Shown here in pieces: positions 9,701 to 18,700 of a DNA stretch of 64,000 bases (its first letter is position 1; each line of letters opens with the position of its first letter). Made by a program: the position numbers. The stretch comes from Escherichia coli (lineage in GTDB: Bacteria; Pseudomonadota; Gammaproteobacteria; Enterobacterales; Enterobacteriaceae), in assembly GCF_041248615.1 (NCBI RefSeq), contig NZ_CP158427.1. The stretch is one strand, 5' to 3'.

Positions 9701-12700
9701 GAGATAGCTTTTGTGCGCGGTCGGAGTGGTCCTGACGAGGGTTTACCCGAAGTCGGGGCGTATCTCCGCGTTAGCGGGCCGTCAGGGCCGCTTACGAGCG
9801 TGTATTCAGGGGTCAGCTTGGAATTCGGAAATTTTCCCACGCTAAGAGAATTGAGTTGAAAGGATGGTTACATCTAGGCCAGCTAACTCACTGAATGTAA
9901 ATGCTGTACGAAATATTCTGACCGTTCGATAATCGTTTGGCTTACTTCCGTACATTCCCTTGCACAGATGTACAGAATTGTACGAGTTCGGACACCAAAA
10001 CCGCTGTTGTCCCGCCATTCTGGCGATTCCTGAAAGTCATTTGACTAAAAAATAGGGGCTATTTCGAATTTTCTGGACACTCCTGACGCGGAGTCTGTGA
10101 CTTCAACCTGACACCTTACGCTCTTAGCGTACGATTTTTTCCGTTTCGTGAGTTGACCCCTTTATTTTCCAAATTCCAAACTGCCCCCTACATTTATACA
10201 ATGTCCGGCAGGGCATAGAAGGGGAGAAAGAAAATACCTAGGCGAAGCCGCTGAACATCATTCTGGCGATTTCAATAAAGGCATTTGCTCGCGCTCTGTC
10301 ATTATGATGATAAATACGATTTTAACGCCAGCACTCACCGTGGCGTCATCGGAGAGTCGCACACAAGGCTCGGGGCGATGTGTTCTGGTAAAGAGTACCA
10401 GATACTGCTTCCTGGTGAAATTCACATTAAAGAAAGTGGTAAGCGATAATATAAGGGCCGGGATTCCGGCCTTTTTATGCAGCCTTTATAACAGTGTATT
10501 AGTCATTCGCATATTCAACATATCCCTCCTCACAATGGTACATGCCATAATACATTCTCTTACCCTCCGGACCTTCAGCTTTAAATGGGACAAGAAGTGT
10601 TTTTTCATCTTCAACATCTGTTAAACTTCTTTCAATCTTTTCCCATGTAATTTTCGGGATTTCTGTACCAAGAAGTTGTACATCGTTGTCCCAGCGTTTC
10701 ATTCTTTGCAGGTAATCATTTTTTACAAACGTTCTGGCCTGTTCATCGCTGACCTGATAGCATGCCGGAGCTTTATCTTTAGACCAGAAAAAAACAGCAG
10801 TAAGAGCAATAATCGTTAAAATAAAAATAAATTTCATGCTAATTACTTTCATAAAATCTCCACAACTTCTGTCGTCCATTCAATATAAAAAAACATTACG
10901 AATATATCCGTACAATGTGAGCATACTGTGAAGTGGCTTTAACAATTATGAAATAATACAAGAGATCACATATTGCAGTGGTCTCTTTTTTATAGAAGAA
11001 ATCACAATTCATAATTGTGATTTATTATGCATGTCTGTTTTTCAGCATTGTGACCGCATCGGACTCAGGCATCAAAAACTGCACCCGGTGCCGTGCAGCC
11101 ACATCCAGCGCAAACACCTTCGTATAGACCTCCGTTGAGCTGATGGACTTATGCCCCATCAGGCTCTGCAGGACCTTCAGCGGTATACCGGCATACAGCA
11201 TGTGCATCGCATAGGAATGGCGGAACGTATGTGGCGTGACCGGGACAGAGAACGTCACACCATCAGCGGCAGCGGCGGCAACCGCCTCCCCAATCCAGGT
11301 CCTGACCGTTCTGTCCGTCACTTCCCAGATCCGCGCTTTCTCTGTCCTGCCTGTTCGTTTATTACGCCGTTCCATGGGGATTTTCAGTGTGGCCACCATC
11401 ATCTGCACCTGGCTGACGTACCAGGCGTCGGAGAGCGGAACCAGCCGGTGAGTCTGCTGACCGGCGGGCATTCTTCCTGCCGTCCTGGCGGCTTTTTCTG
11501 TCCGCTGCTTCAGAGTGGCCAGCTGCACAAACGGATACGGAGGCGCAAGCGAAAAATCCCCCCGCGTCAGCGCCAGTGCTTCATTAATGCGCGCACCGGT
11601 GTTCCACAGTGTGGCCAGCAGCATCTTGCGGCGCAGATCCGGGACGTAATGGAGCAGGGCGCTCACTTCAGGGGCCAGCAGGTAGGCCGTTGTGCCCCCC
11701 GTGGAGGTGGCCATTCTTCTCAGGGAGAGTGCTGTTGCAAAATCCACCCCCGGCGCAATGGGTAACAGGGAGACGCGTTCTGGTGAATTCTGCAGGGGAA
11801 TGACATTGTTCATGAGTTATTTTTCACGTAGCACACGCACTGTTTATGGCTACAGGTGGTTTTGCTGCTTTTGGGAGAAATGGGGTAATAATGCTAGGTG
11901 GCACCGAAGCGGGGGGGTGAATGTAAAGCTCTTTCGTACTGTGCATCGCATTGTACTCATCATTGAGTAAGTGCTAAACCATGTTAATAGGTGATACTCT
12001 GAACAACACCCCAGAACTATAAGCCCCCATCAATATGATCATGGCAGAAAAGATGCCGGCTTCTTATTAGAGCACTCTGCACTCTCCTAGACAGAACGAG
12101 CTTTGCCATGGAAAGCTCATCTACCTGGCTATTTGTATTGATGCTGTACAAAGATCATCTTAGCTTAGGAACTTTCGTCTACTATTTCTAACGGCAAATA
12201 TCTCAGAAAGGATTATTTGTTTTTATATTTTTTATAAAAACAAAATCCCTTCTGTTTATTTTTTTTATAAAAACAATAAACAAACATTTTGCCTTTATAT
12301 CAAATATAAAAAAAATAACACAATCTGTTTTTATTGTGTTTATTTGGATATAAATACTGAAAAACAAAGATGAAACAGAATTTTACTCTACAATGTCATC
12401 TTTGCATGGTTTTATTATCTGTCGCAATTTATGGTAATCTCACCATTCAAGGAAAATATTTCTTGAACGACCTTTCTTGTTGGGTAGAATAAGAAAAAAA
12501 TCATGTGGTGCTTTTATTTTTTTACACTTGGACATAATTAATGCAGAGATAGATAATGCCGTGTCATAGTGAACATAGCTCTGACGTTACATATAATCAT
12601 AATGGTATTACCAGAAGAAGGCCTGCAGAGGTAGGCATGGCTCATGATCAGTTTGAAGCTTTAATAGAAATATCTTCTATACATAGCCACAAGGTAATTC

Positions 12701-15700: not shown

Positions 15701-18700
15701 AAATTCTGAAGTCTTCAGGCCAGAAGACCAGATATGAAGTTGGTATGAATGGAAATGCTTTTGATCGTCGTCTTTACTGGGATATCAGTGAAGAAATGGT
15801 GCCAGGTAGCGAGAACAGCTCTGACAACAGCCGCCTGAATCTGAGATGGCAAGGAACATATGGAGAACTGACAGGTATGTACGGATACAGCAGCCATATG
15901 CGTCAAATTAGTGCCGGAATATCGGGTGGTATGATAGCTCACAGTGAAGGCATTACACTAGGGCAAAAAATGGGAGATACGACTGCTCTGGTTGTTGCTC
16001 CGGGGGTCAGTGGCGCTTCTGTTGAGGGATGGCCAGGAGTTAAAACCGATTACAGAGGATATACTTTGGCTGGTTATATGTCGGCATATCAAGAAAACGT
16101 GATCACAATGGATCCATCAACGTTTAAGGAAAATGCTGAAGTGGTACGAACCGACACCAAAGTTATACCTACGAAAGGGGCTGTCGTCAAAGCTAATTTT
16201 GAAACTAGGGTTGGGGCACGAACTTTAATCACCTTAACACGACATGATGGAAGTCCTGTTCCGTTTGGTTCAGTTGTAACTCTTGAAAAGGAGAAAGAAT
16301 CACATCCTTCTGTCGGGGTGATGGGAAACAATGGAGAAGTATATATGAGTGGGTTGCCGAAAAAAGGGAATTTGAAAGTCGTGTGGGGTGAAAAAAACCA
16401 GTGTAATGCCTCTTACCAGCTTCCAGAGCAAAAGGGTACAGCTGGGATTTTCTTGGCGAGATCCGTATGTATGTGACAGGAGACTGTAATTGATGAACAA
16501 AAGAATACTGGCAGCAGTCAGTAGCACATTAATAATAGCTTTATCAGGAGTGTCACAAGCTGCGGAGCTGGCGCTTTATCCCCAACACAATAAGGGGGGA
16601 AATTTGGTTGATGGTGTTCGGATAGCCAAAGGACGAATAGTGTGCAGGGATACACATTCTGGTTTCCGCATATGGATGAATGCCCAAAAAGCAGGAGATC
16701 GATCTGAATATATCATAAAAGGTCGGACAAAAAATCAACATGAGATACGAGTCAGATTGGGTGGTGATGGATGGTCACCATCAGTGCTCAAAGAACAATA
16801 TGGGATGGCAAGAAGCGGAACTGAAGAAGGAGCCATTTTTGATGTGCTACTAGATGGGGACCAGTATGTGGCTCCGGATGAATATGTATTTTCTGTACGC
16901 GGATTATGCTTATAGTTAAATATCAAATTTCGTTATTTTAAGTTAAATAAAAATAATAACTATCATCATGTTATATAAAAACATATACTTTTGACATAAG
17001 ATTATGTACATAGTACTTACATTAGCAGTGTTAAAACGCTTCATATCATAATGGCGTAAAATATATTACCTATAATACTGATTTATCCTTAGGCGATGAA
17101 GGCGGTTGGTTATGCTCAACTTATTGATAAGAGTATCTCCCTTAAAAAACATTAATGTATATTTTAGAAACACATCGTTAAATGAATATTTAAAACATGA
17201 TGCAAAAAATATTTATGAACGACTCTTATCTAAGAGCTGTTCTGTGGAGTGGGAATATCTGAAGCGTTTTTTTATAAATACTGGCCCACCTGTGTGATAC
17301 GCCATGTATAAATAAATTATTGCAAATAATATCTGAGATATATGCTTCTATTTTGTTTACTCTTAACAAAAAGAAATATAACTCTCCAACTAAATCGAGG
17401 CTATTATATGAAATATTTTAACAAACTGATTCTGTGCGCTGCAGTTGTTACAGCTTTCGGAGCTAATGCTGCAACTTACAACCGTGAAGGTGAAACGACA
17501 CAGACTATTGTAATTACTAAGCCATTAACGCTTCAGGCACAAAACACTTACAAGGTTGCCGATGACAAAGCCAGTGGCGGTGCGGCAGTTAGAACGACGG
17601 ATGGCTCTAAGGCAAATCTATATATTGCGGTTGCTGCATCCAGCACTGGCGCAGACACTGTTCGTATTGCTGCTGATTCAGGTAATCTTACCCTGATTGG
17701 ACAAGCTGCATGTGGCAATGGTGTTAGTCCAGTATTAGATACTGCAGCATCTCGCCCTGGCGCTAACACCGCAGCTATTCAGTGTGCATCAGCATCATCT
17801 GTTGCTACCATTGTGAATAGTATGGAGCCGGCAAGCCCTGAAGCTGGTGAATATACCTTTACACAAGAATATGGTACTTATGTAGATTAATTCTACCTCA
17901 AGGGTAATGCCGTTTCTTAAACTGCGGCACTATAACGGCTTCCACAACAGGGAGCCGTTTTCTTGTGCACAGAAAACCCCCAGCTAGGCTGGGGGTTCCG
18001 GAAAGCTTTCAGCTTTGAGCCAGTTATTAAAACCCCTTTTGATTTGTTAAAACACCTTGCGGTCTGGCAACTGCAAGTGTCAAACAAGAAATCAAAAGGG
18101 GGTCCCAATGGGGAACGAAAAGAGCTTAGCGCACACCCGATGGAACTGTAAATATCACATAGTATTTGCGCCAAAATACCGAAGACAGGTGTTCTACAGA
18201 GAGAAGCGTAGAGCAATAGGCTGTATTTTGAGAAAGCTGTGTGAGTGGAAAAGTGTACGGATTCTGGAAGCTGAATGCTGTGCAGATCATATCCATATGC
18301 TTGTGGAGATCCCGCCCAAAATGAGCGTATCAGGCTTTATGGGATATCTGAAAGGGAAAAGCAGTCTGATGCTTTACGAGCAGTTTGGTGATTTGAAATT
18401 CAAATACAGGAACAGGGAGTTCTGGTGCAGAGGGTATTACGTCGATACGGTGGGTAAGAACACGGCGAAGATACAGGATTACATAAAGCACCAGCTTGAA
18501 GAGGATAAAATGGGAGAGCAGTTATCGATTCCCTATCCGGGCAGCCCGTTTACGGGCTGTAAGTAACTAAGCTAGATACAAATGTCAGACGCATGCGCCT
18601 GTTAGGGCGCTGCTGGTACCAGAGCCTTACAGGCGCATTTGAAAAACCTCCGGCTATGCCGGAGGATATTTATTTGTACACATACCCTTAGCTCCAGAAA

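Follow-up and report, generated by a model that had tools for sequence, protein, structure and literature searches.

An Afa/Dr-like chaperone-usher operon on an Escherichia coli IncF plasmid with an orphan terminal subunit and a conserved Thr-Gly-Pro-Pro reading frame

The 64,000-nucleotide stretch of Escherichia coli contig NZ_CP158427.1 analysed here (the window) carries, from about position 12166 to 17892, what is very probably a self-contained and intact 5.7-kb chaperone-usher module, resident on an IncF plasmid and belonging to the class that joins Afa/Dr, the aggregative adherence fimbriae (AAF) and Saf ('polyadhesin', long-loop chaperone). A first-pass annotation of the same DNA had described an Afa/Dr-like operon with a divergent terminal subunit, a description borne out by our comparisons: the assembly genes have clear Afa/Dr homologues, and the subunit, an orphan by sequence, is predicted to fold as a pilin. 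To judge from its sequence, this major subunit is one of a small family of highly variable proteins to which no database gives a name.

Results

Assembly genes of the Afa/Dr type

The gene order recorded in the first-pass annotation (PapB-like regulator, chaperone, usher, AfaD and a 160-aa secreted subunit) agrees in its coordinates with the mapped annotation of the Prokaryotic Genome Annotation Pipeline (PGAP). Comparison of the encoded proteins with those of a chromosomal dra operon and an afa-8 operon, both drawn from PGAP-annotated records, shows that the usher is 67.6% identical to AfaC along its full length (845 aa) and 67% identical to the afa-8 usher, and that the chaperone is 67% identical to DraB over 233 aa and 64% identical to its afa-8 counterpart. 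The regulator is 55% identical to AfaA of the dra operon and 47% identical to the corresponding afa-8 protein, and the AfaD protein is 44% identical to both DraD and the AfaD of afa-8. The Pfam family PapB (PF03333) is present in homologues of the regulator, and the chaperone contains a cysteine pair 39 residues apart (LQWLC...NSC). The best NCBIfam matches, all of them under the cut-off, are SafB for the chaperone (1.8e-77), a Saf-type usher (937 bits) and SafD. Among 5426 complete E. coli genomes, the next relatives are afa/dra, afa-8, agg3/agg5, agg and a CS22-like cluster, at 64-68% DNA identity. These alignments identify the regulator, chaperone, usher and AfaD as clear homologues of the Afa/Dr proteins.

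A terminal subunit without named relatives

The 182-aa open reading frame (ORF) that begins at 17342 over-extends the subunit; conservation across the family begins at MKYFNKL (17408). Alignment of the family places the end of the signal peptide at ...FGANA, identifies ATYNREGETTQTIVITK as the conserved N-terminal donor strand and reveals two invariant cysteines. The protein terminates in GEYTFTQEYGTYVD, for which the family consensus is G-x-Y-T-F-x-Q-E-Y-G-T-Y/F-V.

Searches with the subunit retrieved no Pfam family even at E<=10 and no NCBIfam match, and the best hit of a sequence search against the PDB reached only E 0.39. A word-indexed search of 5.8 billion proteins returned 17 clusters at 56-97% identity, and an exhaustive profile search with HMMER over the representatives of 1.84 billion 50% clusters returned one full-length cluster together with a 34-aa fragment. 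For 10 of the 17 clusters, members were examined; their sources are Escherichia or Salmonella throughout, and those that bear a name are all called hypothetical or uncharacterised. Direct comparison with the Dr adhesin, AfaE-8/BmaE, AggA and Agg5A by BLASTP and hhalign yielded nothing significant (for DraE/Dr adhesin, a BLASTP E of 3.8 and an hhalign probability of 0.2%; for AfaE-8, no BLASTP match at all). The isoelectric point (pI) is 4.4-4.9 across all 18 family members and 4.5 for the window's subunit, with values of 5.2 for Dr, 4.7 for AfaE-8, 9.5 for AggA and 9.2 for Agg5A. The earlier remark that the subunit could be matched to no known adhesin therefore extends to the Pfam, NCBIfam, PDB and cluster searches and to the pairwise comparisons, and identity with a described adhesin was found neither among these four proteins nor in the databases searched.

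The operon could nevertheless be a determinant that has already been described, such as the plasmid-borne bovine afa-7 cluster encoding AfaE-VII. Lalioui's afa-7 of 1999 reportedly has the afaA-E organisation, derives from animal E. coli and encodes an adhesin distinct from the AfaE types of human strains; in organisation it resembles what is seen here. We consider this identity rather unlikely, given that the named members of the 10 subunit clusters carry no adhesin name, that nine AfaD clusters are labelled 'AfaD family invasin', 'adhesin' or, automatically, 'AggB', with none called AfaD-VII, and that PGAP names BmaE/AfaE-8, Dr adhesins, AggA and Agg5A yet calls the window's subunit hypothetical. 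No description of the operon was found in the literature searched.

A separate Afa-like chaperone-usher-AfaD cluster lies beside iro genes on the chromosome CP070157.1 (3262-7722 of the segment that we denote L007). Its last gene encodes a 'hypothetical' subunit of 151 aa, which has an N-terminal strand of the TIVIT type and the C-terminus PGQYTIGLNAGLVIN and is unrelated in sequence to the subunit at 17408-17890; neither sequence nor profile comparison linked the two significantly. Orphan terminal subunits may be common in the Afa-like clade.

Predicted pilin fold and donor strand

AlphaFold2 modelled the native subunit with a mean predicted local distance difference test score (pLDDT) of 83, with a confident beta core and an N-terminal extension of low confidence (~63-68). 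We then joined the core through a DNKQ linker to the subunit's own N-terminal 17 residues, a core-linker-strand design of the kind that crystallographers use for pilins of this type, and did so for all 18 family members. The donor-strand-complemented model reached a pLDDT of 95.2 and a predicted template modelling score of 0.89, all five models scored at least 94, and the transplanted N-terminal strand pairs with the last strand of the domain. In these models, an incomplete immunoglobulin (Ig)-like pilin fold becomes a confident, complete domain once it is given its own N-terminal strand. The subunit is thereby predicted to combine a Sec signal peptide with an incomplete Ig fold that is completed by a donor strand at its N-terminus, as expected of a chaperone-usher pilin that polymerises by donor-strand exchange. 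Among known pilins, the modelled fold is closest to those of AAF. The donor strand of AggA (QQTTQTIRLTV) resembles TTQTIVITK of the subunit, and the last strand of DraE, AGSYILNLDGGYWV, resembles the subunit's C-terminal AGEYTFTQEYGTYV.

A Thr-Gly-Pro-Pro reading frame upstream of the subunit gene

The spacer between afaD and the subunit gene measures 492 bp and has a GC content of 27%. Inspection of this region revealed a same-strand ORF of 61 codons, absent from the first-pass annotation, which is preceded immediately 5' of its ATG by the Shine-Dalgarno-like sequence GAAGG and which ends in ...RFFINTGPPV-stop. At the equivalent position of the dra operon, PGAP annotates 'protein DraP', which ends in ...HRLNTGPPDWQTVE and whose stretch ...LNTGPPDWQTVE contains Gly-Pro-Pro at codons 49-51.

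An ORF containing Thr-Gly-Pro-Pro (TGPP) on the same strand is present in all five lineages of the operon, namely that of the window, that of plasmid pF344-1 (L002) and those that we denote L008, L010 and L011/L012. The four codons vary synonymously only (ACT/ACG/ACA, GGC/GGG/GGA, CCA/CCT and CCT/CCC/CCA/CCG), while neither the remainder of the peptide nor the DNA on either side is alignable among the five; in shuffled spacer sequence, TGPP is expected by chance at a frequency of 0.0002. Because the codons change synonymously while their flanks diverge, this pattern of conservation is, on the alignments, a signature of selection on the peptide rather than on an RNA or DNA motif. RNA structure around the TGPP region is not significantly stable (z = -0.72).

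The ORF resembles the processing element of daa (F1845) in being a short same-strand ORF upstream of the adhesin gene with Gly-Pro-Pro after Asn-Thr, an arrangement also seen in DraP, and Afa/Dr operons likewise carry a DraP/DaaP-type ORF with NTGPP. The rest of the peptide, by contrast, is unrelated to DraP, and Gly-Pro-Pro stands one codon before the stop codon in the window as opposed to six in DraP. In daa, endonucleolytic processing sets free a stable mRNA for the adhesin, and it requires both translation of daaP and a tripeptide in nascent DaaP (Loomis et al. 2001, via PMC12388093, PMC3664800). The published tripeptide is reportedly GPP at codons 49-51, a position with which the DraP sequence is consistent. 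The conserved motif of the window's ORF points to nascent-peptide-dependent mRNA processing.

A scan of the spacer detected no terminator between afaD and the subunit gene, and promoter-like matches in the spacer were just weak ones, fewer than in shuffled controls. An Rfam search of the spacer returned no family, AfaR included, the only matches being associated with IS200. In the afa-8 operon, the corresponding D-E spacer holds the small RNA AfaR, an IS2 remnant, a dedicated afaE promoter and a terminator (PMC3664800), but no ORF with Gly-Pro-Pro.

Distribution and exchange of the structural genes

A DNA search found the operon intact, with the same ORF lengths and at least 80% coverage, in 28 of the 5426 complete E. 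coli genomes. The subunit gene occurs in only ~30 plasmid records, and one AfaD allele is present on 852 contigs. Carriers come from chickens, pigs, humans and water or other environments; they are E. coli and occasionally Salmonella.

The structural subunits are markedly variable: the subunits of the plasmid records are 100, 99, 96, 95, 91, 89, 68, 65, 60, 55, 51 and 48% identical to that of the window, and AfaD falls into at least seven allele clusters (98, 86, 79, 71, 70, 66 and 65% identity). Alignment of the window with pEc673-2 shows 99-100% DNA identity from the recombinase gene through position 17425, followed by 80% and then 56% inside the subunit gene, so that four encoded proteins are 100, 99.6, 99.6 and 98.6% identical and the subunit just 68%. 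Against pF344-1, identity declines along the operon, from 97% for the regulator and 98% for the chaperone to 82% for the usher, 57% for AfaD and 54% for the subunit. These alignments indicate that the structural genes have been exchanged by recombination between operons that are otherwise nearly the same. All five genes and the short ORF are intact and identical in length in lineages that differ by up to 50%.

The operon was also found once on a chromosome, in E. coli MS 119-7 (CP146653.1, 939146-940146), and on two Salmonella enterica plasmids (CP073108.1 and CP029842.1). These copies indicate that it is mobile beyond the IncF plasmids of E. coli.

Leader sequence and candidate regulatory sites

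The first-pass annotation had placed an AT-rich leader of ~700 bp between the recombinase and the operon. Of these 742 bp, 12166-12555 is indeed AT-rich (26-31% GC), but 11814-12165 is of ordinary composition (43-52% GC). The latter segment is common only to the window type (which includes L003) and the pF344-1 type among the lineages compared, and homology to L008, L010 and L011 starts only at 12166, 12450 or 12539.

Within the AT-rich part, we identified two palindromic boxes, TTTTTTATAAAAA, whose cores (12228-12240 and 12261-12273) are 33 bp apart, and a weaker third copy at ~12296-12318; a repeat search likewise recovered a palindromic-box family with three copies in the leader. The boxes are invariant in the five lineages amid leader sequence that has diverged. 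The block CTCTTGAAC-N16-TAGAAT is also kept in all five, as is the sequence around the start codon of the regulator gene. The former block is predicted to be a fixed sigma-70 promoter, and the boxes may be operators to which the PapB-type regulator, nucleoid proteins or both would bind. The AT-rich leader is probably silenced by H-NS.

Over 12100-13100, the window is at most 97% identical to all other carriers; the point substitutions responsible cluster at 12290-12410, between the boxes and the promoter, with no indels or rearrangements.

The Afa/Dr and daa operons are phase-variable through a mechanism in which Dam methylation of two GATC sites competes with Lrp, aided by PapI and PapB (PMC8764528), and the window provides both a PapB-family regulator and two upstream GATC sites, at 12037 and 12153. 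Both sites, however, lie outside the leader core common to all lineages, and that at 12153 is lost in pF344-1. No PapI/AfaF homologue was found in the whole window (the best tblastn match, of 13 residues and E 0.11, falls elsewhere in it), and 11858-12200 contains neither an ORF nor a tblastn match that would represent a remnant of one. The GATC sites are moreover 116 bp apart, compared with a canonical spacing of ~102 bp. Because a PapI homologue is lacking and the GATC sites stand outside the shared core, one of them being lost in pF344-1, Pap-type Dam/Lrp switching is unlikely here, and we accord it a low probability as the mode of control.

The neighbouring recombinase is probably plasmid backbone

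The divergent tyrosine recombinase gene upstream of the leader had hinted, in the first-pass annotation, at recombinase-controlled expression of the fim type. In such a scheme, the enzyme would invert a promoter-bearing segment of the leader and so turn the operon ON or OFF. Its position (divergent, 742 bp upstream), the sharing of the recombinase-operon junction by the window/L003 and pF344-1 lineages, and a set of AT-rich imperfect inverted repeats at 12217-12315 are compatible with this idea. Examination of the leader, however, offers no invertible segment. The repeats at 12217-12315 consist of adjacent arms of A and T only and are no better than chance, and a repeat search combined with a k-mer scan, judged against block-shuffled, composition-preserving controls, found that the longest perfect inverted pair at 50-900 bp spacing is 11 nt long and again A/T only, a length equalled or exceeded in 31% of shuffles; the absence of clear inverted repeats that had been noted by eye thus held up computationally. 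The leader is colinear and in one piece in 24 of 24 complete-genome records and 25 of 25 listed plasmid records, two sets that overlap, and the predicted promoter sits within a fixed, conserved block.

The recombinase itself is of another family. Against NF007370, the model for invertases of the FimB/FimE type, it scores 21.3 bits where the cut-off is 221; its highest scores, ~70-80 bits, are to Xer models, yet it reaches no family's cut-off. It is matched at 82-97% identity by at least 5000 plasmid records from Escherichia, Klebsiella, Salmonella and Shigella, while the subunit gene is confined to the ~30 noted above. Conversely, the operon has no recombinase upstream in L010, where its neighbour is a serine-protease autotransporter (SPATE) gene, or in L011, where insertion sequence (IS) elements adjoin it, and in L008/L009 it has the opposite relative orientation, with the recombinase downstream. 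The resemblance to the fim switch, in which FimB and FimE act on fimS, is thus limited to a tyrosine recombinase gene near a fimbrial promoter, and differs in the family of the enzyme and in the want of flanking inverted repeats, orientation polymorphism and a conserved linkage of recombinase and operon. On this comparative evidence, the fim-type switch is not supported, and we regard it as extremely improbable.

The recombinase is instead, in all likelihood, an ordinary component of the IncF plasmid backbone that came to lie beside the module through backbone rearrangement and that would have no part in fimbrial expression. A paralogue at 1263-2003, next to RepFIB, shares with it 262 bp at 90% identity (1786-2047 against 11596-11857), comprising the N-terminal 72 codons and 44 bp upstream. 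In pF344-1, a hybrid and apparently frameshifted recombinase (L002 1263-1982) joins RepFIB directly to the operon, as would be expected if the two paralogues had recombined and the ~10 kb separating them had been lost. The recombinase is also found next to the colicin M immunity gene cmi away from the operon, on a ColV-type contig (L009 5381-6693). Some depositors name the gene resD or resolvase; ResD of the F plasmid and Rsd of the Salmonella virulence plasmid serve multimer resolution, which by analogy is the most likely role of the enzyme.

Site-specific capture of the operon at the recombinase was rejected because the junctions differ between lineages: in the window, recombinase and module meet at a distance of 44 bp from the start codon, and in L008 ~240 bp away and in the opposite orientation. 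The sequence upstream of the recombinase holds no crs-like 17-bp direct repeats, the only direct repeats being the AT-rich leader boxes.

Discussion

Relation to known adhesin operons

The closest architectural parallels to the window's operon are the Afa/Dr operons (afa-3, dra, daa/F1845), which share its gene order of regulator, chaperone, usher, D subunit, short P ORF and 160-aa E subunit, and whose subunit is likewise acidic (pI 5.2, against 4.5 here), with one cysteine pair and a similar C-terminal strand motif. The terminal subunit of the window, unlike the rest, has no detectable sequence relation to DraE/AfaE, and the operon lacks an afaF/papI gene and a conserved GATC pair. Typical targets of the Afa/Dr adhesins are DAF (CD55), CEACAMs and type IV collagen. 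The AAF of enteroaggregative E. coli (AAF/I-V: agg, aaf, agg3, hda, agg5) are similar in their donor strand, in being plasmid-borne and in their chaperone-usher DNA (~66-68% identical). They differ in being AggR-dependent operons that have no PapB-type regulator, the first gene of agg and of agg3/agg5 being that of the chaperone, in a B-A spacer of just 100-175 bp that leaves no room for a P ORF, and in their pilins, which are basic (pI 9.2-9.5, against 4.4-4.9 in the window's family), a property linked to electrostatic binding, and show no significant sequence or profile similarity to the subunit. The afa-8 operon (AfaE-VIII/BmaE), found in extraintestinal pathogenic E. coli (ExPEC) of animals and humans, is comparable in architecture and in its circulation in animals, but it has papI, and AfaE-8 is unrelated to the window's subunit.

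Proposed mode of expression and assembly

Taken together with the features described above, these parallels suggest the following scheme. Transcription would start at the fixed promoter within the AT-rich, probably H-NS-silenced leader, under control of the PapB/AfaA-type regulator, possibly acting through the two conserved palindromic boxes, and a single transcript would extend as far as the subunit gene. Ribosomes translating the DaaP-like ORF would stall at Gly-Pro-Pro, which would lead to endonucleolytic cleavage, as shown for daaP, leaving a stable subunit mRNA and hence subunit in excess. After export, the subunit would be bound by the chaperone and, through donor-strand exchange at the usher, built into an adhesive fibre, thin or afimbrial, with which AfaD is associated. 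The hypervariability of the subunit and of AfaD may reflect antigenic diversification, receptor diversification or both.

It is quite possible, though we hold it tentatively, that the subunit founds an uncharacterised family of acidic adhesins, without sequence kinship to any AfaE, AAF or Saf pilin, that uses Afa/Dr machinery with a receptor specificity of its own and that diversifies rapidly by allele exchange on IncF/ColV-type plasmids among E. coli of poultry, pigs and humans and Salmonella, and that TGPP is a general, conserved signal for ribosome stalling and mRNA cleavage that sets subunit stoichiometry across the fimbrial clade. Several considerations limit the scheme of expression and assembly set out above. 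Pairwise comparison of the subunit with known adhesins covered the Dr adhesin, AfaE-8/BmaE, AggA and Agg5A. The subunit alignment is shallow (18 sequences of one family), and the confidence of AlphaFold2 could in part reflect a generic beta-sandwich. For mRNA cleavage at the TGPP ORF, the model is daa; both the promoter and the boxes proposed to bind the regulator are predicted, and the functional parts of the scheme are all inferred.

A different view would hold that the operon is a silent or decaying passenger that is never expressed, its subunit a dead gene adrift. The probable silencing of the leader by H-NS, the IS elements that surround the module and the truncations seen in some relatives would accord with such a fate. 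We nonetheless judge it very improbable, since the five genes and the short ORF keep their integrity and length across the divergent lineages, since variation within the subunit spares its core, cysteine pair, donor strand and C-terminal strand, and since TGPP is kept through synonymous changes.

Should the proposal of a distinct adhesin family hold, the operon would represent a new colonisation factor relevant to the host range of avian pathogenic E. coli and ExPEC. If the fibre is made, an unnamed adhesin would be added to those of transmissible IncF plasmids, and the window's plasmid also carries mph(A) and catA1. Virulence-gene typing as now practised would overlook such an adhesin, since annotation lists its major subunit as hypothetical. 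The operon family also supplies comparative evidence for peptide-level selection on the Thr-Gly-Pro-Pro of DaaP and so supports a little-studied form of nascent-peptide-triggered mRNA processing, for which the natural variants of the ORF could serve as test material. The case further shows that a plasmid recombinase adjoining a fimbrial promoter need not be a switch.

Plasmid setting and neighbouring genes

The segment 11025-17890 is 100% identical to plasmid p14408_1 of E. coli NRZ14408 (LT599826.1; IncFIA/FIB/FIC, conjugative). In the mapped PGAP annotation, the rest of the window consists of RepFIB, accessory genes, the F leading region and tra genes. The coordinates of the locus are collected in Table 1.

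Table 1. Features of the fimbrial module and its immediate flanks (window coordinates)
Feature	Position	Strand	Basis or remark
Tyrosine recombinase, 262 aa	11025-11813	-	PGAP 'site-specific integrase'; outside the fimbrial module
Spacer of ordinary GC content	11814-12165		GC 43-52%
AT-rich regulatory leader of the operon	12166-12555	+	GC 26-31%
Candidate sigma-70 promoter, TTGAAC, 16-nt spacer, TAGAAT	12463-12490	+	Consensus scan
PapB/AfaA-family transcriptional regulator, 96 aa	12556-12846	+	PGAP 'adhesin biosynthesis transcription regulatory family protein'
Periplasmic chaperone, long-loop (FGL) type, 251 aa	13035-13790	+	Homology to DraB
Outer-membrane usher, 843 aa	13945-16476	+	Homology to AfaC
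AfaD-family minor/tip subunit, 140 aa	16493-16915	+	Pfam PF05775 AfaD; PGAP AfaD-family invasin
DaaP/DraP-like short ORF, 61 codons, ending ...INTGPPV-stop	17112-17297	+	TGPP codons 17280-17291
Terminal (major) pilin/adhesin subunit, 160 aa	17408-17890	+	PGAP 'hypothetical protein'
IS200C, approximate ends	17930-18640	+	PGAP IS200C tnpA 18108-18566; Rfam STnc490

As the first-pass annotation had it, the recombinase gene lies divergently upstream of the operon and an IS200 immediately downstream. This element, IS200C, begins ~40 bp 3' of the subunit stop codon and is followed by IS26 and then an mph(A) module; the IS200 5' untranslated region element STnc490 scores 146 bits at 17975-18098 in Rfam. 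Homology between lineages stops 2 bp past the subunit stop codon, and the native 3' end of the operon is replaced on the window's plasmid. A terminator scan found one terminator-like structure after the subunit gene, a hairpin at 17934-17959, 44 bp past the stop codon, which belongs to the inserted IS200.

An IS26-bounded resistance region, 19201-~28000, sets in ~1.3 kb past the operon and contains mph(A)-mrx(A)-mphR(A), catA1 and IS1; given this proximity, the adhesin module and the resistance genes share one conjugative plasmid. On the other side, cmi (YebF family, 10499-10852, minus strand) adjoins the recombinase gene. Farther upstream, overlapping genes for a RelE/ParE toxin and a ribbon-helix-helix antitoxin make up a type II toxin-antitoxin pair at 8931-9490 on the minus strand, and at ~4461-6790 a gene with a reverse-transcriptase domain is present in fragments (three short coding sequences), followed or interrupted by an IS3-family element; these fragments may derive from a degraded group II intron or a retron-like gene.

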